DNA from: a virus
UHGV virus genome: UHGV-1351772
DNA: 64,000 bases
Direction: 5' to 3' (one strand)
In this document: in pieces, positions 51-52,592 of the stretch
Layout: each line of letters opens with the position of its first letter
How positions within the stretch are numbered: position 1 is the stretch's first letter
Position numbers and translations under genes: made by a program
The notes under the pieces: generated by a model
What the model was told of the DNA's origin: nothing
Database searches by the model: none
The model's input: the letters and a program-made list of their open reading frames with translations, nothing else

Positions 51-3000
51 ATGAAACGCCTACAGTTGGCGAAGTATGGCTTTGGAAATTTGTCGTCTAT
101 TTCTAACTCGGCAATAGCGGGAGAAACAAGCGGTCCGTTAGCTGATCTGTTTCGACTAATGCACGATTTGGGACTAGTTAACCCGCTACGTCGCGAAACC
201 TTAGCATTAGACGATCGTTCTGCGGAATCTCTTTCTGCGGCGGCGAAGTTCGATCGTAAAGCTTACCTTAGTATCACAGAAGTTATTCCGACGTTACTGT
301 CCGAGATTAACAAATCTATTCGTCGTGGGTATGGCGAACACCACGATCAGGTTTATGACCTGACCACGCGCGGTATGGTGGATCGCAAAGTTATTGGTAA
401 TCGTGTACGTAAGGCCGTTGCTAATGACGATCAGCGCAAACGTTTACAGACGTACATCAACGACACTGTCGACTTTATCGATAAAGATAAAACGCTCGAT
501 AGGAAAACACGTCAAGCGTTAGCGGACTACATCGAGTCTCGTGCCTCGGAAGGGAAAGCGTTCGATGTAGGGTCTTTATTGAAAGACCCGATGCACATGT
601 ATCGATACATGAACGCAAACGCTGTGGAAGCGATTCAGGGTGTTTTAGAAGCCCGTTCTGCGGAACTGGTTGGCGGACACCATGAACTGAGTAATGCGAT
701 TTCAAACAAAATCGCCGCTATCCAGTCAACGATTCGTGCACGTCAAGACACGGTTGATGCTGCGTCTGTGATTTACGGCGAGAACGCACTTCGTGATTCC
801 GGTATTTTTAAATACGATGCGAAGAAAGACATTTTCGAGGTCGATAAGGACATTAACGATCCCTATACGTTATTTAATGACCTGTCGATGGGTAAGACCC
901 GCTCTGGACGTTCGTTAACCCGTGAGCAAGAGATTCAGCGTAAATTGCAAAACGGTTCTGCGCTGGGTGATTACTTGCGACGGATGGGTGCAGGCGCAGA
1001 GCCGAGCTTTGAAGACAAAGAACTGTCCAATGTACGTGGCGGTGGAAAAGGAGGTCGTGGTCGCGGTTTAAGCGCACGCCAACTCGCTGCGGTACTTTAT
1101 GGAGAGAAATCCACTAACTTTGTTGAACTGTTAAGCAGTCGTCCAGACACGAACGCCGGGTTGGAACAGCAATTCGACCGTTTGATTGATGCTGTACGTA
1201 AACAGCCCGAATCTAGCACAGTGCAAGATATCCTCAAACACGTTAAGAACATGGATGAGGAAGGTATTCTCCTAGCCAGTTTAGGCGGTAGTCGTGATGA
1301 CGGTGACGAATCTGAAAGTTCGAGTGACTCGGGTCGTAAACGTCGTCGTAAACGCAAACGTATTGTGCTAGGCGAGACAGGCTTGTTACGCCGTTGGGCT
1401 GGGGTGCTTTGGGATACCGGTTCAGGTGTAGGGCGGTTTGGTAAGAATCTGTTCCTACGTGGGAAAGATCGTCTGCAGGCTTTAGGTGGTTTTATCCGTG
1501 GGAAATTCTCAGGCGGCTCCTCCGAAGGACCCGGTGTATTTAGCCGACTGAAAGGGTTAGTAACAGGTACTCTATCGACAGGTTGGAATTCTGCTGTAGC
1601 TTTCGGTAAAGGCGTTTTAGGTGTTCGTGATATTTACGATGAACGTGGCAACGTCGTATTACAAGGAAGTCGTTTAGAAGCTGGGGAATATTACCAGGCT
1701 GACCCGAAAACTGAGAAGCTGATTCAACTTAAAACCCTCGACGATATTAAACTGGGACGTGATATTGTCGATGAAGCGGGTAATTTAATCTTAGCTGCTG
1801 CTGATTTGGCTGCCGCAGGTAAACTGCGTTTCTACAAAGGTGGTAAAGTTCAAGCGCTTTTCCAGTACATTTCTGGGAAAGCAGGAACGGCGGTAAACAA
1901 AGCTGTGACTTTACCGAAGAAACTTTTAGGCTTCATTTCACCTAAAGCGGCTTCGTTGTTCGAGAAAGCACGTGAGTGGCTAAATGAGGTTCCAGAGGGC
2001 GCAGAGAAAACCCGTTTACAAAGCATGATTTCCCGTGTAACGGGAATGCCAGCGCGTTTGTGGAACAATGCAAAACGCGGGTTTGAGAAGCTCAAAGAGT
2101 TGGCTTCTGATAACCCTCTGACACGTTGGTGGCAGAACCGTAAGGAAGGGGGTTCTGGTGGTGGGTTTAGTGTGTTCTCATGGTCGAACGGCCGTAAAAC
2201 TAACCACATCTTAATCCGTATCTACAAACTCCTTAACCGGAGATTGCCAGGTGAACCAGAAGATGATACCTGGACAGAACAGATGGAGCGGAATACGGGA
2301 GCCAGTTCAGTTAAAGGATTATTCCAACGTGCTAAAGACATACGCGATGGGTTCCGTGAACATTTTCAGGGGTTCCGGGATTGGCGCGGTCGGATGCGTG
2401 ACAGAATGTCCCGTTATCGCGGTGCGGTAGGCGATCGTCTTTCTCGTTGGGGCGGTACCGCACGTGGTTGGTTTGATCGTTTCCGTGGCCGTGCAAGCGA
2501 TATGGTCGATACTTTCCGCGATCCGCGTTACGATATCGGCACACGTTATCGAATGGAGAGTCGTTTAGCAGGACGCGATGACGATGTTGCTGAGTTTTAT
2601 CGTCAACACATCTACGCAAGAGGTAAGGTGTCTAAAACACGTATCATCGATGCGGCAAAAGAAGACTTAGACACCGTAACGGATAGCGCTGGACGTGTGA
2701 TTAATAAAGGGAAACAGAAAGCCCGTAGCGTTGGGTCAGCTTTACTGGAACGCCTGAACCGAATGGTTAATCTTCAGGAAATGTCATGGTTTAACACCAT
2801 GCGTGATTCTGCGGAAAAAGCAGGTGCTTCGGATGGTTTGTTAAGAACTATGTTCAGTAAGTTCGGCCAACGCAATAAACCGCCTGCCAGTGATGAAAAA
2901 CGTGATTACTTCCAGTTCTTCCGACGCCGTCGTCGTTCTAAGGAAGAGGAAAAGGCTAAGAAAGAAGCCGAGAAGAAAGGTGGTAAGCGCGGGGTGATGG

Positions 3001-6000
3001 ATTTCCTTAAAGGACTGCCGTTGGTAGGACCGATTGTGAGTATTTTAGGCACAGTAGGTTCAATCTTAGGTAAAGTCGCGAAATGGGGAATCTTTAAGCC
3101 GGTTGGGTTTGCAGGCAAAGCGTTGTGGAACGTTGGTAAGTTTGCTGTGACTCGTTTGGCTGTCCCTGCGGTGAGTGCTGTCGCGACGGCAGCATCTGCA
3201 GTGGTAACTGCGGTTGGCTGGCCGATTATCGGTTTGGTCGCTGCAGGCGCTGCGCTATCTTGGTTTGCATATAAAACTGCAACCCGTGTGAATGCTCAGT
3301 ATTTGGATAACATGCGATTGGCACAGTACGGATTTAGAGATCACGATGAGTGGTCTTCCGACGATGGCGCAAAAGCACGTTATTTAGAAGACAACTTGAA
3401 ACCGTACATCTCTTATACAGAGAATGGCCAAGCACAGTTGCGTGGTTTGTCCGGTGACGACGTGAAGAAACTGGCCGAAGGGTTTGGTACTAACGTAGAA
3501 GACAAAGGCGAAATGCTGGCGTTTAGTGCGTTTATGCTACAACGTTTTGTGCCGATCTATTTACGTTGGATTACGGCACTGAAATCCATGGATAATGATA
3601 TCGCGTTAGCAGATGTCGGTAATCCTGCGAAAGTGTCGAAGGCAGACATGTTGAATATCTTCAACAAAATGAAGATGTCGAAAGATGCGCCTGCATTCCG
3701 TGCATTAGAAGATCCCCGCAAGGTTAACCAAGGTTGGTTCTCTAAAGCGTGGGATTTCGTAACGTTTACCCCGGCCGAGTTTTTGTCAGGCGAAGAAGTC
3801 GTTGAAGCGCAAGAACGCGTGCTTCGTTCGATTAACATGCGTCGTGATGAAAAACGTAAGGATGTAAATGCTACAGGCGGTGTGGCCGAAGGACACAAAG
3901 TTGCTTCTGTGGCAGAATCGACCCAAGCGTTGGCTCAAGCGGATGCGGAACGCAACAAAGAAGTTGCGAAAGTCGAAGGTTGGGAAGACGGCACCGAACA
4001 AGTTCAGGTTCAAGTCGACTGGAGAAGCTTACCTAAAGAAACCGATCTCCGTGATTTGGAGTCCGTAAGGTTGAAAGCTTATGGTGCGGTGAGTATTACT
4101 CAAACAACCCGTAACCTCTATACGCTCTTGGAACGTCAAGTGTTGCAAGACACCGATGTGAAAAGCTGTACGTATAAAGGCGACTGGAAACGTGCGATTG
4201 CGGTGATTGCGCCTGACGCCATTGGTGGGCCAAAAGAAGATCGGTACAAGAACTGGTTCTATAACCGCTTCTTACCTGTCTTCATGACGTACGTGGTTGG
4301 GGTGAAACGTTATGTCCCTGCTGCCGATCCGATGGACCTACGCGTTACGGGTGGGTTCTTGTATGAAATCGCACTGATGATGCGTGGTGCATACAACCTG
4401 AAAGGGGGTATTCGTCAGTCAGTGTGGGAGGTACCGTTTAACCCGTTAGGGGGAGACGCTAACACCGACGCCGGTTCAGTTGCAACGGAGTTAGAGAACC
4501 TGAAAGAACTGTCTAAGGAAGCTGATTTGGCAGTACGTAAAACGCTGCGTGCTACGCCTTCTGCGGGTTTCCGTGTGAACTGGCAGCGAAAAGATCGCGC
4601 GACTCAGATGTTCTTGACCGACGATGAGAAGGAGCAACCGTCTCGACCACAGATGAACACCTCCTCCTCTTATCGTGACCTATTGCAACCAGCGGCAAAC
4701 GACGGTGGGAATTACGGCACACCAAACGATTTGGCCGGTGCTTACGGTCAGATGGGAGCTAAGAATTACGCTGCATTTACTACCGGTAACTTCGGCGTGA
4801 AACTTGGCGATATGCAAGACGGTGACTATAAAACGTTAGCGGCTAAGTATCCAATTTCAACGTTGGGTGACGGATTGAAGCCTAACTTGAATGCGGTTGC
4901 AGCACTGATTACAGACGTAGCGAAGATGATGGGTGTTCCTCCAGCGTTAGCACTGGGAATGGCACAAGCAGAATCTGGGCTTAGATACGGTATCAAAGCT
5001 AAAGGAAGTTCTGCGGCTGGCTTGTTCCAGTTCATCAACGATACCTGGGGTGCGCAGATGAAAGCTTATGCGAGACGTTATGGTATCCCGCAAACCAACC
5101 AGTATGACCCGTGGGCGAATGCTCTGCTTGGCGTCCGTCATATTCGTGATAATATCGAGAAAGCCAGAAAGGATTTAGGTGGTATCGATCCTCCAGGTGC
5201 AGCTGTTTACCTCTACCACTTCTTAGGACAAGGTGGCGGTAAGAAATTCCTGCAAGAATGGAAGCGTGATCCGAACGGGCCATCGTCGCGTGGTGCGTCG
5301 GCCGATCAAATCGCGGCAAACAGCACAATTTTCTACAAGAATGGAAAATTGCGTAGTTTGGATGAAGTGCTCAACATCATGGGTGGTAAGATTGGTGCTG
5401 TAGGAACAAACGCGATCGCGGCTAACCAGGCATCGCTGAAAGACTTGACGACAGGCGTAACACCAATGCCGTCTTCCCCGGCTATCGCTGCAGGCGCTGC
5501 TAACGATCCGTCTATCACAGGCCCGGCAGATAACCTGCCAGCCGCGAACGAGGCGAATCGCGACTCCGCTTTAGCAGACAAAGGCGCGATGGGTGCTGAA
5601 GATATTAAAGCTGCAACTGGTGGTGGTCCGGCTGTGCCGAGTCCTGGCGGCGATGTCACGCCGAGCGATGCGTCAGTTGTTGTAGAGACGGTGGGTCAAA
5701 ATGCACGTGCTGATGGCCTGGCCGAAGAAGAGGTTGCTAAAGTAAAAGAAGGTGCTAGACAGCAGATGGAGAAATCGGCCCGTCCTGCACCAACGGTAAC
5801 TTCCGATGCTCAGAGCGGTTCTACAGTGAACAGTGGTGATCCGATCAGTGTACAACAGCTGGCGGTTGCAAAAGAGTCTGCAGGCTATCTGAAAGAGATT
5901 GTAACAATTCTTCGCCAGCGGCCACAGGCTATGCAAAACGGTCCGGCTAACCCGGCGTCAACCGCTCCGGGTTCGGCGTCACGTAACGTGTCAATAACTC

Positions 6001-8861: not shown

Positions 8862-8902
8862 TCTACCTACCTCCGAAAGGAGGTAGGTACTTTTATTTAT
8901 TT
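8862..8902. terminator. Bidirectional intrinsic terminator between convergent genes
   Basis: Stem TACCTACCTCC / GGAGGTAGGTA with GAAA loop, A-run upstream and T-run (TTTTATTTATTT) downstream. Confidence 0.7.
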
Positions 8903-9727
8903 CGCCAGATCTGCTTCTTTTACAAAGATACCGTCGGCGTTCAGATAACCTTTACGGTCTTTGATTTCGTGCCAGGCCAAAGAGAAACAATGGCGAATGT
9001 TAAGACGATAATAGAGAGCGAGTCGCGCAAGACGATGTAAAGCCCAACCTAACGTAACAGTACCCAGTTCAGTACGTAAGAACGCAGTAGCGAAGATTTC
9101 GGTAGCCTCTAAATACAACTGGTGTGGATATTTGGTATCGTTTAAACGTTCTTCAACGTCAGCGACATCATCTACCTGCAATTGTAAACCGCGTTCGATG
9201 ACTTCAGCGGTTGTCATTCCGCCAGTCACTCTGTCCTTATCCAGTTCCAGGATGTTTACCAGAACCACCAACGCATCGCCGATGCCGTCCATGATCAGTT
9301 CAGGTTTGTTTTTGCTGATACCTGTTGCAATCTCACCAAATTCTTCATAGAACTTTGTGATTTGAGTTTCCAGTTTACCGTTGTCGAGAATACCACGTTC
9401 TTTAGACCAACCTTTAACACGTTCTACACAGTTTTCAATAGAGTAGACCGGAACAGATTCTGTATGCATTACCGTGCCGTTGTAAACAGCATCGGTAAGC
9501 TTAATAGGCGCTACAATTGTTTCGATGTCCAGTTCTTGATTACCGGTGTGACGTTTACCTTCTACACGAATACGGTTGGTACCAGGGTTTACACCAATTG
9601 TGTAAATAGCATCGAACTGTACTGCATTCTCATTCAGAGCGCGCAGTTGTGCGTTAACTTCTTCCAGGTGCTGACCAGGATTAACCACGATGTTGTAAAT
9701 AGTGTTGATGTCAAAACGTTCGCCCAT
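8897..9727 (-). CDS. MazG-like nucleotide pyrophosphohydrolase domain protein with extra N- and C-terminal regions
   Basis: 276 aa; central segment YEEFGEIATGI...MDGIGDALVVLVNILE fits the MazG EExGE...D.hGD.L pattern; flanking regions unassigned. Confidence 0.4.
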   Translation of the reverse strand: MGERFDINTIYNIVVNPGQHLEEVNAQLRALNENAVQFDAIYTIGVNPGTNRIRVEGKRHTGNQELDIETIVAPIKLTDAVYNGTVMHTESVPVYSIENCVERVKGWSKERGILDNGKLETQITKFYEEFGEIATGISKNKPELIMDGIGDALVVLVNILELDKDRVTGGMTTAEVIERGLQLQVDDVADVEERLNDTKYPHQLYLEATEIFATAFLRTELGTVTLGWALHRLARLALYYRLNIRHCFSLAWHEIKDRKGYLNADGIFVKEADLAK

Positions 9728-15642: not shown

Positions 15643-16906
15643 AATAGTCTTCCACGATTTTATCGGTAGACTGGTAACTTACACTGCCTGCAGCAATCAC
15701 GTAATTACGTTTCTCGGTGGTTAGTAGCGCCTGAATCGCATTTACGCCCGCATAGGTGTAAAGTTTAAGTTCAGTCATTTCTGGCGTGATGTTTTTCGCT
15801 TTGTCCCATTTTGCATCTAATCCTTTAAATAGCGTTAATAGACGAGTGCCATACGTTTTGAAACTGACACCGGGTTCAACCCGAAGGTTAGCCATAAGGT
15901 TCTGGATAACGGTGGTTGCGATCTGAGTCCCTTGCCCCGGTTGGAGTTTATCCAGATAGTATTCCGTTGAATCCAGATTACCTGTCGCTGCTGCCTGAAT
16001 CATCAGCTCGCCGTACAGTACCTCTTTCGCTTGTGCATCAGTAATCGCTTGAAGCATCGGTTCGATTTTAGCCGGTAAACCATAACTGTTCAGTTTAGTA
16101 GACAGGCCATAAATCAGCGCTGAAGAGGTATTAATGTCTAACGTGGAGAAACTGTTGCTGCCTTTAAAGCTGTTAATCAGGTTATCGATGGCTAGGAAGT
16201 CGTCTAAGTCTTTGTAGCTGTCGAAAGTATGCTGTACGTCATCAACGATCGAGGTGATTTGATAACGCATACTGTTGACTTCGGACATAAAGCCGTTGAC
16301 TTCTTGACTAACTTCCGAGGGGAGTTTAGCCAGTTGCCCAGCAATGTTCATCGTCCCTTCGAGACGTTTTTTCACTGAGTTAAAGTCGGTGCCGATACCT
16401 GATAAAACAGAGTCGGTTAAGCTGCCGATGCTGTCCCACCCTTTATTTAACAGTTTCCCCATCCCACCCGGACTTAGGTAGTCTAGCGCTTTTAGACCAT
16501 CTTCATCCTTTTTCTTAAAAGGTTCAGAAACGTCACGCTTTTGTGGATCGAGGACAGGAAGTGTTTCTTTGGTATTAGATGCAAACCCGGGAACTTTTTG
16601 TCCCGGAGATACACCGGAAGCCGAACTCCCAGCAGTCTTACTTCCGCCAACACTGGCGGTATCACTACCGCCAAAAAGGTTACCAATTTTGCTGGTCAGT
16701 TCGTTACCACCGCCAATCAGTTTGTTGAATGTTTCACCCGCACGTTCTGACAATCGGTTGACGCTATCGACCGTGCTTTTAATACCACGCTCCGCATTCT
16801 CCACCGTCGATTGTACGCGGTTTGCGGCGTTCTTTGCCGTATTAACGGAATTATCGATTGCTGACTGACCTTTATTTATCTGACTGGTTATTTGGTCGAT
16901 TTTCAT
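15632..16906 (-). CDS. Hypothetical protein with N-terminal coiled-coil and Gly/Ser-rich region
   Basis: Long ORF; start placed at MKIDQ (TGGAGA upstream) rather than the ORF-finder maximum at 16933. Confidence 0.45.
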   Translation of the reverse strand: MKIDQITSQINKGQSAIDNSVNTAKNAANRVQSTVENAERGIKSTVDSVNRLSERAGETFNKLIGGGNELTSKIGNLFGGSDTASVGGSKTAGSSASGVSPGQKVPGFASNTKETLPVLDPQKRDVSEPFKKKDEDGLKALDYLSPGGMGKLLNKGWDSIGSLTDSVLSGIGTDFNSVKKRLEGTMNIAGQLAKLPSEVSQEVNGFMSEVNSMRYQITSIVDDVQHTFDSYKDLDDFLAIDNLINSFKGSNSFSTLDINTSSALIYGLSTKLNSYGLPAKIEPMLQAITDAQAKEVLYGELMIQAAATGNLDSTEYYLDKLQPGQGTQIATTVIQNLMANLRVEPGVSFKTYGTRLLTLFKGLDAKWDKAKNITPEMTELKLYTYAGVNAIQALLTTEKRNYVIAAGSVSYQSTDKIVEDYFAI

Positions 16907-17717
16907 TCTGGTCTCCAATTTGGTATTCGTCAAGGTTTACCGTGACCTGAACTTCGTAGATTTTATTGTCTTTCTGACGCCTTAAGGTCAGAAGGATTTC
17001 GAAACTACGAACATCAATTGCCTTGAGTACCCTCATAAACCATTTCCAGGAAAACTTCTTTTTTAACCTTAGATTGTGCTGCATGTTGTGCCGCAAATCA
17101 TTTCGTTTCGACGGTGTCTGCTCACAGTTAGCAGGATCGTTAACGAAGTTTGTGGAAAGACGGTACCACCAATCCGCATTCATTTTCATGTTTGCGAAGA
17201 TAGTCCAAGTTAGCCGAGATAACGGATGCACCATCATCTTTGCGGTCTCACCACAGTTCTGGAAATAACGGTTCAATTGCGCAGTTGCAGACTCTTTAGG
17301 TCGTTCGTCGTTATCTTCGAACAAATCCCGAGCGAGATCTTCACGCACGCGTGTGGTAATTTCAGATACGGTTTTTGTTTTGAAGTGTCCTCGGTAAGTG
17401 GTTACACAAATCCGCAGTGTCTCCACTCCGGTAATCACCAACCCTTCTGTAAAACCTCGCCAGGTAAGATCGACAGGTAGTGCAGGAATGTTACCTGAAC
17501 TCAGCTTCGTGGAGATACGTTGTATTCGATCGTCCATCGTTGCTTTTGAACGTGTTTTAAATTCCGGAGACAGAATATGTTTGGCGACGGCGAGTTTATA
17601 ATCCGAAGGCTTCCATCCGATCAATTCTTTATAATTCCAATATAGTGTTTGAAGTGGTCCGCCTGCACGTTCGTCTTCAGCGTCCACGACCACACTTACT
17701 TTTTTGCTATCCATCAC
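16872..17717 (-). CDS. Hypothetical protein
   Basis: 281-aa ORF. Confidence 0.45.
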   Translation of the reverse strand: MMDSKKVSVVVDAEDERAGGPLQTLYWNYKELIGWKPSDYKLAVAKHILSPEFKTRSKATMDDRIQRISTKLSSGNIPALPVDLTWRGFTEGLVITGVETLRICVTTYRGHFKTKTVSEITTRVREDLARDLFEDNDERPKESATAQLNRYFQNCGETAKMMVHPLSRLTWTIFANMKMNADWWYRLSTNFVNDPANCEQTPSKRNDLRHNMQHNLRLKKKFSWKWFMRVLKAIDVRSFEILLTLRRQKDNKIYEVQVTVNLDEYQIGDQNENRPNNQSDK

Positions 17718-20491: not shown

Positions 20492-21988
20492 TTATTTCTT
20501 TTTCGTCAGGAACTTCGGTTCTAGTCCATCGACAGCCATACCCAGAATGGTACGTGCAGTCAGTGTACGTTTACCACCTTTGGTTTCCTGGTCTTTAAAC
20601 ATCCAGTATTCTACCGTGTTGTCCAGAATTTCATTCCAGTCCCACTTCTCGTCAATCATTTTGTAAATCTCACCCATGCTGAGATGATACTTCATTTCAA
20701 GACGATGGTAGTTGTTTTGCATATAAGCAATTGCCGCCGTGATCTCTAAAGCGCGACGTAAGCGTGCGTTATCAGAAATCATATCACGGATTGTCGTGCG
20801 TTGGAATTTCACACCAGGTAGAATGTCCAGTTCTTTGATGGAGCCGCCACTACCGCTTGACGTAAAACCAAAGTCTGACTTCTTCAGCGTGTCACTTAAA
20901 TAGTGCCACAGGCTCAGGTGATATAACAGACCCATTTCCTGAGAGAAGATCATCTGGAATTTCACACCAGTGTGACCACCCTTCGCACGATACTGAGTAA
21001 AGGTGATAATCTTCAAGTCGTTTACCGAAGCATTCATCGCTTTAGAACGTGACGTCGGATAAAGTTCTTCGTTAACACCGGTCTGCGCGTTATAGCTCTG
21101 GTCTTTTTTCAGCTCCCCTGATTTCGTCGCGACGATAAAAGAGTTTGTTAAAAAGCTAAGCTGACGGCGAGGAATACCTGCGAATTTTAAATCGTCGTTG
21201 GCATCGTCAAGAATTTTCGCATTTGCTTTTTGTGCCTGACGGCCACCTGCCATCGCTTTCCCAGAGTCATCGGCCATCTGTGCCACGAAGCCCATGTAAA
21301 AACCACCACGTGCAAACGCAGACGGCCAGCGGCTCATCATATTCGATTTTTGCAGCGCATCGTGGGCGTTCAGGATGTTCTGATCAGAATCCCCAATATC
21401 CGTTTTTGCGTGCTTGTCTTCCAGCGAACTGGAATGCCACTCTGACAGGGAGTCGATAGAATAAAGCCAGGGGTCCAGGATTTCTTTTAACTTACGACGA
21501 ACCGGATCGGGGAACGGTGTTACGCGGGTTTTACCAGACATATACTGTTTGAAGCGTTTTTCAACTTCATCACGAATATAATCACTGTAATACTGTTCCC
21601 CAGGCATTACGTCAGAACCGACCAGGTTATAACGACCTTCGTGGATAAGTTCCAGTACGGATGTTCCGTCGTCGATACCGTTGGCGTTCATGGCAGAGAT
21701 GTACCCAGTTTCTAAACGATCGAGGGCAGCTGACACTTCTGTATCGTACTTAGAACCCCACTCTGCTTTATAACGTTGCAGGATTTGGAAAATACAGAAA
21801 TCTAACAAGGTGGATTTAAAAGTGTTACCGCGCCCTGCGAAACCCATGATGTGGGCAAAACCACCGTTAAGGTAGTACAAACCATCTTCACCTTTTTCGT
21901 AGTTACCTAAGGCATGATCCATGATGGTGTAAACGTTAAAACGTGGACGAATTACTTCACCGATAACTTGCTTAGTTGGGCCTGCCAT
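20492..21988 (-). CDS. Hypothetical protein with degenerate P-loop-like motif
   Basis: 498 aa; GGAG ribosome-binding site; N-terminal GFAGRGNTFKST resembles but does not match a Walker A box. Confidence 0.5.
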   Translation of the reverse strand: MAGPTKQVIGEVIRPRFNVYTIMDHALGNYEKGEDGLYYLNGGFAHIMGFAGRGNTFKSTLLDFCIFQILQRYKAEWGSKYDTEVSAALDRLETGYISAMNANGIDDGTSVLELIHEGRYNLVGSDVMPGEQYYSDYIRDEVEKRFKQYMSGKTRVTPFPDPVRRKLKEILDPWLYSIDSLSEWHSSSLEDKHAKTDIGDSDQNILNAHDALQKSNMMSRWPSAFARGGFYMGFVAQMADDSGKAMAGGRQAQKANAKILDDANDDLKFAGIPRRQLSFLTNSFIVATKSGELKKDQSYNAQTGVNEELYPTSRSKAMNASVNDLKIITFTQYRAKGGHTGVKFQMIFSQEMGLLYHLSLWHYLSDTLKKSDFGFTSSGSGGSIKELDILPGVKFQRTTIRDMISDNARLRRALEITAAIAYMQNNYHRLEMKYHLSMGEIYKMIDEKWDWNEILDNTVEYWMFKDQETKGGKRTLTARTILGMAVDGLEPKFLTKKK

Positions 21989-43712: not shown

Positions 43713-44198
43713 TTAGTATTTAGATTGTTCTACGTACTTCTTAACCAGGTAAGCGAATTCGGCAACACCGATATCACCGAACCAAATCAGGTAACCGGGG
43801 TCGATGTTGTAGTAATAACCGACGAGTTTCTTGGTGTGTGGGTTGTATAGCGTTACGATGTATTCCCAACCACAAGCGTTAGCTTTACAACCACCGCTTT
43901 CAATCCAGATTTTGTTGTTGATGTTTACCGGATACATGTTACCGCCAGGGCCATCCATGTAACCTTTAGAGCCGAACATACCATCCAGTCCCACAGGGTC
44001 TAGTGTTTTATCAACAACGGCTTTAAACGACTTATCGGTATCGTACAAGTCGTTGATGTTTGGGCACGCATTTGGCTGACCTTCCCAAGCGTTTCCATCA
44101 CAGGTAAGCAATTCGTCTGCGGAGGCCGCATCTACAGTTGGTGTGACACCGATAAACAAGAAAACCAGAAAGAACATCAGTGCATGTAAACGTTTCAT
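43713..44198 (-). CDS. Small secreted protein (signal peptide), member of tandem cluster
   Basis: 161 aa; signal peptide MKRLHALMFFLVFLFIGVTPTVDA. Confidence 0.5.
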   Translation of the reverse strand: MKRLHALMFFLVFLFIGVTPTVDAASADELLTCDGNAWEGQPNACPNINDLYDTDKSFKAVVDKTLDPVGLDGMFGSKGYMDGPGGNMYPVNINNKIWIESGGCKANACGWEYIVTLYNPHTKKLVGYYYNIDPGYLIWFGDIGVAEFAYLVKKYVEQSKY

Positions 44199-44631: not shown

Positions 44632-45093
44632 TTATTTGTTAGGACGGGTGTGTCCACAGTTCTGGAAGAAAGTTTCAGACAGACGTTCGCCTTCTACGGT
44701 AAAGTTAGCGGTGTCGTTACCATTGATACTCACACTGAAAGTTTTGGCATTACCGATAGCATTAACGAAAGCAACCCAAGCGTGTTCTGCTTTGTCACTA
44801 CCGTCCACGGTAGGGATGTTATAGGTCTTGCCGTTTACGACAATATCCAACGTGTTATCTTCCGCGTTAGTTGCACCTACGGGTTCACCGTAATACCAAA
44901 CCATGTGACCGTAAAATTTGCGATTCGCAGTTTCTGTGTCACAGTTGATAGACAGTCCGTTTCCGGCGGTGTCTTCAATTTCGTAAACTGCCTGGCCAGG
45001 GTTTTGTATTTGTTCCCAGCTGTTGATAGCGGCGTGTGCGCTATTGAGGCCGAAAGTTAAAATGGTTATTAAGAAAGTGATAAAGGTTTTCAT
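44632..45093 (-). CDS. Small secreted protein (signal peptide), member of tandem cluster
   Basis: 153 aa; signal peptide MKTFITFLITILTFGLNSAHA. Confidence 0.5.
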   Translation of the reverse strand: MKTFITFLITILTFGLNSAHAAINSWEQIQNPGQAVYEIEDTAGNGLSINCDTETANRKFYGHMVWYYGEPVGATNAEDNTLDIVVNGKTYNIPTVDGSDKAEHAWVAFVNAIGNAKTFSVSINGNDTANFTVEGERLSETFFQNCGHTRPNK

Positions 45094-49897: not shown

Positions 49898-50863
49898 ATG
49901 GAGAAATCCAGTGTTGATTTTTTCTCAATTGGTATCGTCGCGGAAGACAAACCCCGTGGTACAGATCGGGTAAAAGTGATACCAATTGAAACTAACTTTG
50001 CTAACCCTACTGTGGTGCAATCTGTTTCTTCAGCAACTGAAAAGACGCATGAAACATCTGGTGCAACAGATAACCTAACCATTAAGACGGGAAACACGAT
50101 AACGGCAAAGTGGTGGAAGTTTAACTCCAACCGAATTAATTCCCCTGACGTTAAACGAGAAGATTACGTTATCTTGTTACGTTTGGGGAAAACCGATATT
50201 TATTTTTGGATTGATCTGAACTTCGCTAACGTTAAGCGATTAGAAGATGCGGTTTATGCGTGGTCGGCTGACCCTGAAAACCAAATGGCGGATGACTTGT
50301 CCAATGCGTATGTGTTGAACGTTTCGACGATTGACAAACATATCACGCTAAGAACAAGTATGGTGAACGGTGAGAAAGCGGCGTGGTTGTTTCAGTTTGA
50401 TAATGCAAACGGTACGTGGCAGTGCGTTGACCATAAAGGAAACAAGTATTACATTAACTCGGTTGAAGATGATCTCGGGTTTGAGAATGCGATGCTTTCA
50501 AAAGTGAACATCAACAAAGAAGATGCGTTCATTTATTCAAAGCGTTCTATTAACCTGGAAACGAAAACGATTAATGAAAAATGCGAAGTCCGCAATACGG
50601 AAGCAGCGAATTCCGTTACGTTTAAAACACAAACCTGGTTAACAGAAGCGGGCAGTTCGACAACGTTTAAAACGCCGAACTTTAAACAAGAAGGGAAGGA
50701 AGCGATGTTCACCGGTAATTTGGAAGTCGCTAAGAACTTCAAATACGGTGGTACGGGTGAGGGTGTGGGTGTCTTTACGGTTAAAGATGCCGTTATTTCC
50801 GGTATTACCTTTAGCGTTCACATTCACCAAGGTAAACATGGCCCGACATCACCTCCGCAGTAA
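49898..50863 (+). CDS. Hypothetical protein, possibly virion structural (beta-rich, repeated TFKT segments)
   Basis: 321-aa ORF; first rightward gene after the control region; C-terminal repeated TFKTQ/TFKTP motifs. Confidence 0.45.
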   Translation: MEKSSVDFFSIGIVAEDKPRGTDRVKVIPIETNFANPTVVQSVSSATEKTHETSGATDNLTIKTGNTITAKWWKFNSNRINSPDVKREDYVILLRLGKTDIYFWIDLNFANVKRLEDAVYAWSADPENQMADDLSNAYVLNVSTIDKHITLRTSMVNGEKAAWLFQFDNANGTWQCVDHKGNKYYINSVEDDLGFENAMLSKVNINKEDAFIYSKRSINLETKTINEKCEVRNTEAANSVTFKTQTWLTEAGSSTTFKTPNFKQEGKEAMFTGNLEVAKNFKYGGTGEGVGVFTVKDAVISGITFSVHIHQGKHGPTSPPQ

Positions 50864-51069
50864 TTCCCCTTTTTCTTACGTTGTTTTTATATATTGTGAC
50901 CTGACGTTGGTAAAGCTTTTTATCAACACTTTTCTTAAACCCATCGTTTAGTTAAGCAGGCCACTTTTTTCGCGCACTCTACTCCTCCCTACGGGGAGGA
51001 GCTATCTTATGCTTCGGTTGTAACACACGTCGGTCTTAGACCACCTTCCTTTTGAAATGGAGAGCTGTT

Positions 51070-51279
51070 ATGTCTATTAAAGAGTTCTCTTCTGCTGAGC
51101 ATATTCCAGAAGAGTTTAAGAAAATCGGTAACGTTAGCGCTTTCGGCGACACCGTTGATCATGTAACGGGTAAGCTGGCTGCTGAAGCTGAAAAAATTGG
51201 CGGCGACGCATTCAAAGTTATCGGTATTTCCGGCAACAACAAACTGCACGGTAACGCAATTGTCTACAAAAAAGACTAA
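51070..51279 (+). CDS. DUF1471 (YdgH/BhsA/McbA-family) domain protein lacking a signal peptide
   Basis: Start placed at MSIKEF (GGAGAG upstream); IGNVSAFGDTVDHVTGKLAAEAEKIGGDAFKVIGISGNNKLHGNAIVYK matches the DUF1471 core; own upstream hairpin and strong downstream terminator. Confidence 0.55.
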   Translation: MSIKEFSSAEHIPEEFKKIGNVSAFGDTVDHVTGKLAAEAEKIGGDAFKVIGISGNNKLHGNAIVYKKD

Positions 51280-51280
51280 G

Positions 51281-51340
51281 CGAAAAAAAAACGTGCTACT
51301 CCTACCCTCTTAGAGGGTAGGAGGTTACTTTATTTTTTTC
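51281..51340. terminator. Bidirectional intrinsic terminator
   Basis: 11-bp stem CTCCTACCCTC / GAGGGTAGGAG with 3-nt loop, flanked by A-run and T-run. Confidence 0.75.
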
Positions 51341-52592
51341 GTGCTCTAAAGCGATGCATTTCTAAATACACTTTTTCCCAGGGACCGAATGGACCGACGA
51401 TTGCTTGCGCGTCGTTAATCTTCTTCTGATTATACCACCGGGCTTCACGAAAGACGTAGTTTTGACTGTCGAACTCCGTGGTGTTAAATACCCACTCACC
51501 CTCCTCCCATGTAGGCCAATAGCCCACCGTCTTTCCGAAGCGATTATTTAAGTACCCTAATGGTTTTTCAGAATCAGGATCGCTAGGGTCCTTGAGATAA
51601 CAACGTCCCCAAACTGCGTTATGTGATACACCCACAACCTCTTCTTCTAAATACGGATTATCTACCGTAAAGATAAACGAAGACTCGTGGAGTAAAAGCG
51701 CCTTTAATGTTTCGGGGTTGCGAATACGTTGGACATTAGTAGGTGTTGATAAATCCCCCACACCGATGGCGTCCCAGTCGTAATAGCGACGGGTTTCCAG
51801 AACGGTCCGTGCAAGATCAAAATTCGGTAAAGAAATCATGATCGCACGGTCGGAGAAATAACCGCCAGGAGGCAACCAACGTAATAGTCCACCGATGACG
51901 AAACCCACCGTTTTTCCCGTGATAGATTCGGGCAGCGAAATCATTAACGTAGAGTAATAGTCGCGTGTAGTGTCGAGCTTGTTTAGGGTAAGGTTGGCAA
52001 TGGGGTAAGTTTTAACATTCCCTAACTGACCAAAAACCATACAGCCGATATCTGGCGTACAGGCTCTTCGTACGATTTTACCGGCCCCGGGTAATCGGAC
52101 ACCTACGGTATCTGTCTGGTGCGGTACCCATTGACCGTTAATGTTGTACAGTACACTATTACGGTATTTGTCCTTCCACTTGTCCTCACAAACGATGACA
52201 ACGTCATCAGCATCGTCTAAGCTGAAATCTTGACTGTGGTGGTACCCAGGCGGACACAGATATGTTTCAACGGGTACGTCAGCATTAATCGATTGGTAAT
52301 GTGCCCAACTGAATTCGAGTTTCGGCAATCCGGCTTTTAGAGTAGGGATGACGTTTCCGGCTTTTTCATTTAACCAATCTTGTAAAGTGTCTGTTCGGTT
52401 TTGTAGTTCGGCAAGATGGTATTGGCTGACTAACGTATAGTCTTTACCAAGTGCACTTAAACCGATCTCAAAGGTGTGGTAGTCTGAACACAACGTATTT
52501 AAGGGTTGCGTGACATCGATGGCTCCCCAGGTACGGGACTCTCGAGAGAAGCCAAAAGCGCTGTCGGGCCGCACTTGATAAGCAGTAGTCAC
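51330..52592 (-). CDS. Hypothetical protein (leftward gene inside rightward late block)
   Basis: 420-aa ORF, convergent with the DUF1471 gene and divergent from the first tail-fibre gene. Confidence 0.5.
   Translation of the reverse strand: MTTAYQVRPDSAFGFSRESRTWGAIDVTQPLNTLCSDYHTFEIGLSALGKDYTLVSQYHLAELQNRTDTLQDWLNEKAGNVIPTLKAGLPKLEFSWAHYQSINADVPVETYLCPPGYHHSQDFSLDDADDVVIVCEDKWKDKYRNSVLYNINGQWVPHQTDTVGVRLPGAGKIVRRACTPDIGCMVFGQLGNVKTYPIANLTLNKLDTTRDYYSTLMISLPESITGKTVGFVIGGLLRWLPPGGYFSDRAIMISLPNFDLARTVLETRRYYDWDAIGVGDLSTPTNVQRIRNPETLKALLLHESSFIFTVDNPYLEEEVVGVSHNAVWGRCYLKDPSDPDSEKPLGYLNNRFGKTVGYWPTWEEGEWVFNTTEFDSQNYVFREARWYNQKKINDAQAIVGPFGPWEKVYLEMHRFRARKK

Follow-up and report, generated by a model that had tools for sequence, protein, structure and literature searches.

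The window analysed here is the whole 64,000-nucleotide (nt) stretch of the virus genome UHGV-1351772, and the element in question is a small plus-strand gene within its block of tail genes, which encodes a 69-residue protein of the DUF1471 family (Table 1). A sequence-only reading of the window had presented it as a host-like gene without a signal peptide, recently acquired and predicted to be cytoplasmic. Comparison with phage and bacterial sequences makes it very probably the ortholog of gp172 of the phage SPN3US, captured long ago by an ancestor of the SPN3US-like jumbo phages. The most plausible cause of its codon bias, long kept and at the level of capsid genes, is selection for very high expression.

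The locus and its counterparts in SPN3US-like phages

The open reading frame (ORF) lies exactly where the sequence-only reading had placed it, and its product, MSIKEFSSAEHIPEEFKKIGNVSAFGDTVDHVTGKLAAEAEKIGGDAFKVIGISGNNKLHGNAIVYKKD, contains the peptide quoted there without change. The tail-gene setting was also recovered, with a gp173-like baseplate gene upstream, a convergent gp171-like gene downstream and, beyond the latter, genes for two giant gp170/169-like virion proteins. Of the corresponding SPN3US proteins, gp171 is essential and associated with the tail (PMC5105663), and gp168-170 are candidate baseplate or fibre proteins (PMC5105663, PMC5694885). The gp171-like ORF of the window starts at GTG, as does the annotated gp171 of SPN3US.

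Table 1. Position of the DUF1471 gene, its flanking signals and its neighbours in the window
Feature	Position	Strand	Details
Baseplate assembly protein, SPN3US gp173 homolog	49898..50863	+	phrog_3216, E 1.4e-113
Distal promoter-like motif	50876..50898	+	CTTACG-N14-TGTG, contains TATATT; conserved, predicted
Conserved non-coding element GCCACTTTTTTCGC	50960..50973	+	sequence conservation
Upstream hairpin	50982..51001	+	8-bp GC-rich stem, TACG loop; -17.2 kcal/mol, z -3.0; also in terminator scan
Proximal promoter-like motif	50990..51011	+	TACG-N14-TATG; putative start G at 51011, 58-nt leader; predicted
Shine-Dalgarno GGAG	51059..51062	+	7 nt 5' of ATG; read off the sequence
DUF1471 coding sequence, 69 residues	51070..51279	+	ATG 51070, stop TAA 51277-51279; very probable SPN3US gp172 / PHROG 8068 ortholog
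Bidirectional intrinsic terminator	51280..51340	both	A9 51283-51291, stem-loop 51299-51323, T7 51333-51339
Convergent SPN3US gp171 homolog	51330..52592	-	phrog_3337, E 6e-144; 76% identical to gp171

The DNA surrounding the gene shares about 74% identity with SPN3US-like jumbo phages, among them Salmonella phage SPAsTU and Erwinia phage phiEaH2. The protein matches PHROG 8068 over its full length (E 4.5e-32; residues 1-69 against profile positions 1-70 of 70), and a tblastn search returned 60 of 50,697 phage records, all of them SPN3US-like jumbo phages, with 40-80% identity. It is a variant of the SPAsTU/phiEaH2/ChrisDB type (72-80% identical), shares 45% identity with SPN3US gp172 (SPN3US_0172, YP_009153466) and reaches 99-100% only with metagenomic sequences. 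Thirteen IMG/VR loci, on contigs of 107-248 kb, carry the gene, and two of them encode the identical protein.

Gene order was compared in SPN3US, SPAsTU, Asesino, Wellington, Phobos, CR5, Derbicus and SNUABM29. In every genome inspected (genera Seoulvirus, Erskinevirus, Wellingtonvirus and Derbicusvirus) the gene follows the gp173-like baseplate gene and faces the convergent gp171-like gene, and the 60 matching GenBank records and 13 IMG/VR loci all have it in this position. SPN3US gp172 and the other orthologs resemble the window gene in length (about 69 residues), locus, missing signal peptide, terminator and extreme codon bias. Homologs of gp171 were found in 140 records, including phiKZ-like phages that have no DUF1471 gene, and a published comparison table for SPN3US gives gp172 no counterpart in phiKZ; on this evidence the capture falls at the base of the SPN3US-like clade. 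Catalogues hold the family as PHROG 8068, of which the window gene is a moderately divergent further member. RefSeq names SPN3US gp094 (the original gp172) a 'DUF1471 domain-containing protein', and several Erwinia phage records have a putative BhsA.

Erwinia phage Wellington carries a second, tandem DUF1471 gene (gp189; 2787-3347, plus strand of the stretch examined) directly after the first. It consists of a signal-less domain (residues 1-68; Pfam 29.7 bits) and, fused to it, a tail of about 120 residues that is acidic and of low complexity, and it is a lineage-specific duplication of the DUF1471 unit; its codon adaptation index (CAI) is raised as well (0.50-0.61). A further signal-less copy of the phage type, with 69 residues and 77% identity, is filed at NCBI as 'TPA: DUF1471 domain-containing protein [Salmonella enterica]' on a 23-kb contig, and is probably jumbo-phage DNA in a bacterial data set, not a chromosomal gene.

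A DUF1471 domain without an export signal

The domain assignment of the sequence-only reading holds in profile searches. Pfam PF07338 (DUF1471, YdgH/BhsA/McbA-like) matches over the whole domain (profile positions 2-55 of 55) and scores 38.2 bits, where the gathering threshold is 27 (E 1.4e-9). The best-scoring NCBIfam subfamily is BhsA (NF047859), at 46.8 bits and well under the equivalog cutoff of 90, and YahO structures were matched at the sequence level as well. An AlphaFold2 model built from 34 sequences (predicted local distance difference test score, pLDDT, 87) has the topology beta-beta-alpha-beta-beta, a mixed alpha+beta arrangement like that of YahO, SrfN and the YdgH domains. Foldseek placed this model with probability 1.0 alongside YdgH/SssB (2M2J, 4EVU), SrfN (2MA8, 2JNA), YahO (2NOC, 2MA4) and RcsF (2Y1B); template-modelling (TM) scores were 0.60-0.74 to DUF1471 domains and 0.84 to RcsF. 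The result agrees with the published finding that the DUF1471 fold is most similar to RcsF (PMC4092069). The window protein differs from these solved structures in sequence, being only 12-24% identical to them in structural alignments, and whereas RcsF has redox-active disulfides (PMC4092069), none of its 69 residues is a cysteine.

With the bacterial proteins BhsA/YcfR (NF047859), YbiJ, YahO, McbA and YhcN the window protein shares the Pfam domain, the alpha+beta fold and the C-terminal family motif GNNxxHGxAIxY. In contrast to the BhsA-type proteins it has no signal peptide, is about 30-49% identical and stays below the BhsA equivalog cutoff, and its gene belongs to the tail module of a lytic jumbo phage, where its codon bias suggests much higher expression. 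The DUF1471 family is otherwise confined to Enterobacteriaceae; most members carry an N-terminal Sec signal peptide and are periplasmic or outer-membrane proteins, the family is known only from these compartments, and one member, SrfN, binds sulfated polysaccharides (PMC4092069). The phages that carry the gene infect Salmonella, Escherichia, Erwinia, Cronobacter or Proteus, in keeping with the restriction of DUF1471 to Enterobacterales, and the bacterial matches come from Serratia, Yersinia, Erwinia, Pantoea and similar genera.

The lack of a signal peptide was borne out for both possible forms of the protein. The ATG form, whose N-terminus is hydrophilic, reaches a 10-residue Kyte-Doolittle mean of at most 0.40 there, and the in-frame extension MKWRAV that opens at TTG 51052, which had likewise been described as not hydrophobic, one of 0.54; the same measure gives 2.0-2.6 in eight bacterial homologs. 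No hydrophobic N-terminus was found in the window protein or in any ortholog (maximum 0.4-1.2). The MKWRAV extension is not conserved among orthologs, and in SPN3US a stop codon directly precedes the ATG of gp172 in frame. All phage orthologs start at a common position, most of them behind a TGGAGA context (GAGGA in the Derbicusvirus group), and in the alignment with bacterial homologs this position coincides with the start of the mature bacterial domain, as the sequence-only reading had proposed. The cytoplasmic location predicted there stands for the place of synthesis; the SPN3US ortholog gp172, however, has been detected in virion preparations (PMC5694885, PMC7411985). Inspection of the alignment by eye for the prohead-protease motif A-x-E showed a single AAE in the window protein, which SPN3US gp172 does not share.

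The closest bacterial proteins are 85-residue BhsA precursors with signal peptides from Serratia, Yersinia, Erwinia and Pantoea, about 30-49% identical. They were retrieved by an exhaustive search and a profile; a word-indexed search with the single sequence gave only 7 phage-type proteins. The exhaustive protein search also returned a protein of 1883 residues in which three stretches resemble DUF1471 (E 1.5e-4 to the window protein). The nearest bacterial BhsA is no closer to the window protein than the most distant phage copies (40%), and in a neighbour-joining tree the phage sequences came together in 121 of 200 bootstraps (56 columns; modest support). The ratio of nonsynonymous to synonymous substitution rates (dN/dS) is 0.03-0.25 for pairs unsaturated at synonymous sites, and the GC content of the gene equals the phage background; purifying selection acts on the gene, together with an unusually strong selection for efficient translation. 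Values of dN/dS against SPN3US gp172 (0.6-0.8) were discarded, as they came from an ungapped comparison across an indel with saturated synonymous sites. Very probably, an ancestor of the SPN3US-like jumbo phages of Enterobacterales captured a BhsA-like DUF1471 gene, after which the copy was stripped of its Sec signal peptide and passed on at one fixed site of the baseplate/tail-fibre module.

Expression signals and codon adaptation

Both structures that the sequence-only reading had assigned to the gene, an upstream hairpin and a strong bidirectional terminator, were found. The downstream hairpin has an 11-bp GC-rich stem (-25.1/-25.6 kcal/mol; z -5.8 on the plus and -6.5 on the minus strand) and is kept in 11 relatives, with compensatory both-sided changes at 7 of the 11 pairs. 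With A9 on one side and T7 on the other, it can serve as a terminator for either strand. The terminator is shared with the convergent gp171-like gene, whose stop and last codons overlap its T-run. At the place of the upstream hairpin most relatives have a GC-rich hairpin followed by a T-run, and this structure is probably the terminator of the baseplate gene and an insulator.

Several blocks of the 206-nt upstream intergenic region are conserved across genera, the rest having diverged. They follow the order TTTACG-N9-TATAWT-GTGAC, GCCACTTTTTTC, the GC-rich hairpin, TTTAC(G/A)-N14/15-TATGC and a leader of about 60 nt. The distal motif reads TTTACG/TTTACA-N14-TGTG in SPN3US, SPAsTU and SNUABM29. 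Nearer to the gene, all relatives have TATG(C/T), mostly TATGC, 45-69 nt 5' of the ATG and usually with TTTAC(G/A) before it at a spacing of N14-15; its TATG part recalls the core of the phiKZ late promoters, T(-3)ATG(+1) (PMC7598289).

The motif TTTAC(G/A)-N14-T(A/G)TG has 24 matches in the SPN3US genome compared with 1.8 in shuffles (about 13-fold). Sixteen of the 24 are intergenic, where intergenic DNA makes up 6% of the genome, and each of these faces a gene start 17-99 nt downstream; the motif often comes directly after the T-run of a terminator. Sites include 1161(+), 93484(+), 168867(+) and 181038(+) in SPN3US and 13683(-), 22334(-), 50898(+) and 51011(+) in the window. The genes behind the intergenic copies are mostly non-virion genes (HslV-like peptidase, thymidylate kinase, helix-turn-helix protein, GNAT, SbcC/SMC, exoribonuclease). 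From its distribution, the motif is a candidate promoter class for SPN3US-like phages. A scan for sigma-70 promoters gave none near the gene.

The core CACTTTTTT of the element GCCACTTTTTTC(G/A) is identical in all relatives examined (16 distinct upstream sequences), where it lies 100-180 nt 5' of the ATG; some phages have an A-run after the element that could pair with the T-run. The longer form CCACTTTTTTC has one exact copy in the window and one in the SPN3US genome. As a repeated phage motif it was rejected, its matches in the window within one mismatch numbering 3 against 2.2 expected, and TATAATGTGAC was rejected as a general motif on the same grounds of rarity, being meaningful only when re-read as TTTACG-N14-TGTG. 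An Rfam scan of positions 50700-51500 gave no match at E up to 1.

The resemblance of the codon choice to that of highly expressed host genes, already noted in the sequence-only reading, is reflected in a CAI of 0.633, the highest of 66 window ORFs (mean 0.285, sd 0.076), as computed with Sharp-Li E. coli weights, which may be inexact and may not suit the host of this phage. Among random 69-codon windows drawn from 20 other genes, 0 of 20,000 reached this value (maximum 0.586). Eight orthologs have a CAI of 0.54-0.68, compared with 0.29-0.37 in their neighbours, though synonymous sites are largely saturated between orthologs. Across the 271 ORFs of SPN3US, gp172 ranks third (0.683), after the major capsid protein gp75 (0.716) and the internal head protein gp53 (0.693) and before gp22 (0.661) and gp54 (0.649). 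The ORF at rank four (15768-17621, 617 residues) was equated by gene order and mass with gp22, a 67.1-kDa 'scaffold candidate' (PMC7411985 Table S2). The proteins gp75, gp53, gp22 and gp54 are the most abundant of the infection (PMC5694885, PMC7411985). Since the bias is kept in every lineage tested despite saturated synonymous sites, it points to translational selection and not to a relic of transfer. The next most codon-adapted ORFs of the window are 8897-9727(-), 20492-21988(-), 43713-44198(-) and 44632-45093(-), with a CAI of 0.42-0.46; their products are likely abundant, though these values are far below that of the DUF1471 gene.

A motif class otherwise located before non-virion genes, together with a capsid-level codon bias, suggests a very abundant protein that is regulated apart from its tail neighbours. 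In the expression scheme proposed here with moderate confidence, the hairpin would close the baseplate gene and be followed by one or two promoter-like motifs (TTTACG-N14-TRTG), a leader of about 58 nt, the Shine-Dalgarno sequence, the ORF and the bidirectional terminator. The gene would form an insulated monocistronic unit, expressed very highly from its own promoter or promoters and separately from the tail operons. As a single small host-derived gene with promoter-like elements and a terminator of its own between tail genes, this unit resembles phage morons. The classical moron, however, belongs to a temperate phage, is expressed from the prophage and has a patchy distribution, whereas this unit is carried by lytic jumbo phages, is present in all clade members examined, is old and is apparently among the most strongly expressed lytic genes.

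Particle association and possible roles of the protein

In SPN3US, gp172 was reported as the smallest virion protein (7 kDa; 4 peptides, 81% coverage, 6 spectra); it was missing from a gp47 mutant, and the authors caution that the gel bottom may have been lost (PMC5694885). The data set of 2016 has no gp172 in any sample, tailed particles included; gp167-171 and gp173 do occur there and disappear along with the tail (PMC5105663 Table S4). In the data set of 2020, which labels gp172 'Tail', 6 peptide-spectrum matches (PSM) were obtained from the wild type and 3 from am59-supD after the caesium chloride (CsCl) step, 2 from DNA-full (tail-less) heads and 13 (1.86 per kDa) from a pellet prepared by differential centrifugation only; the count was 0 in tailed virions purified by step and buoyant-density gradients, in the lower CsCl-step band (debris, flagella, tails, proheads) and in three double-gradient tail-rich samples (PMC7411985 Table S2). 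The 13 PSM of the crude pellet exceed those of most tail proteins in that sample, and the double-gradient tail-rich samples yielded 23-39 PSM for gp171 and 3-27 for gp173 (PMC7411985). The 'Tail' label is based on absence from tailless particles in a data set without any gp172 detection. The recovery pattern as a whole suits an abundant protein whose attachment to particles or debris is weak and salt-labile; a fixed baseplate component fits it less well.

The interpretation that we put forward, tentatively and as something just short of probable, is that of an abundant, insulated, signal-less accessory protein that is loosely bound to particles and acts outside the cytoplasm. The protein would be made in the cytoplasm, from which it could exit only by lysis or by riding on particles, and its binding to particles would be weak enough to be lost in CsCl. 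Once outside, it would work on envelope or surface material (e.g., anionic polysaccharides) of the sort met by periplasmic DUF1471 proteins, whether carried by progeny particles as a salt-labile coat or adaptor, or set free at lysis as an unbound factor, and not as a cytoplasmic stress protein. Such extracellular action of a gp172-type protein is possible, if doubtful; it is proposed because the GNNxxHGxAIxY motif is retained and every characterised relative is periplasmic or at the surface, SrfN binding anionic polysaccharides. A more elaborate form, quite improbable, makes the protein a lysis-delivered 'public good': a BhsA-like protein produced at capsid levels without an export signal, for which lysis itself, or loose attachment to progeny particles, would be the delivery route, and which would bind surface polysaccharide or outer-membrane material on debris or neighbour cells and there change adsorption, aggregation or biofilm, or envelope-stress signalling (RcsF-like fold) to the advantage of the phage.

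Several points weigh against the loosely bound accessory protein. The function proposed for the gp172 family is inferred, and the binding of envelope components is a proposal. Timing and transcription starts of the gene are deduced from the motifs, and the boxes in the window are degenerate versions of TTTACG (CTTACG and, within the loop of the hairpin, CCTACG); its copy of the upstream hairpin is without a good T-run. The CAI values depend on E. coli codon weights that may differ from those of the true host. Plain carry-over of an abundant soluble protein would also fit the signal in the crude pellet, and loss of a 7-kDa protein from the gel, as the SPN3US authors caution, could explain the zero counts.

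In an unlikely alternative, gp172 is a stable, low-copy structural protein of the tail or baseplate beside gp171 and gp173, and its periplasmic-type domain reaches the envelope on the virion. Gel loss would reconcile the zero counts with such a protein, and its conserved place inside the baseplate/fibre module speaks for it, as does its detection in CsCl-step wild-type virions, where 0.86 spectra per kDa is similar to the portal. The two-gradient tailed virions and the tail-rich samples that lack it are, however, those in which gp171 and gp173 are well detected, at 17-39 PSM in the overall comparison; it is absent from all samples of 2016, it appears in tail-less heads, and its top count comes from the crudest sample. 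A codon bias of capsid level does not fit a few copies per virion, and the promoter-like motif is common to non-virion genes.

A rather unlikely explanation is that of an abundant non-structural protein of the cytoplasm, either a chaperone for the adjoining giant baseplate/fibre proteins or an effector that titrates an abundant host component, the virion detections being contamination. The missing signal peptide in all orthologs, the very high codon adaptation, the loss on stringent purification and the motif class before non-virion genes agree with it, and the location by gp168-171 fits a module-specific helper. But a soluble 7-kDa protein should not enrich in an 18,000 g pellet unless bound to something large, members of the family are known only as periplasmic or outer-membrane proteins (PMC4092069), and the retained family motif argues for an ancestral kind of partner; the protein has no similarity to known phage chaperones, and PADLOC, which holds host defence-system proteins and not phage effectors, gave no match for it. 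The version in the sequence-only reading, a recently captured host stress or biofilm gene that owes its host-like codons to recent origin and acts in the cytoplasm, is very improbable. It would account for the host-family domain, the missing signal peptide, the host-like codon usage and the moron-like architecture, but the gene is syntenic at a fixed locus across several genera with identity down to 40%, its nearest bacterial homologs are less than 50% identical, its GC content is that of the phage, and the codon bias is present in all lineages despite saturated synonymous sites.

A literature search on BhsA with jumbo phages, or on BhsA with phage adsorption, returned nothing relevant; no mention was found of the extreme conserved codon adaptation or of its mismatch with the 'minor tail protein' label, in a literature that was not searched systematically. 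The analysis also yielded the candidate promoter motif of SPN3US-like phages. For genome scans it carries a caution, namely that host-like codon usage in a phage gene can mean selection for expression and not recent transfer. In SPN3US it flags gp172, listed as a minor 'tail' protein, as probably among the most abundant proteins of the infection stage. DUF1471 proteins are frequent hits in enterobacterial screens for stress and biofilm phenotypes. A signal-less phage copy that has been kept for long and is apparently expressed like capsid proteins provides a second handle on what DUF1471 domains bind, and one that is genetically tractable because amber genetics exist for SPN3US.

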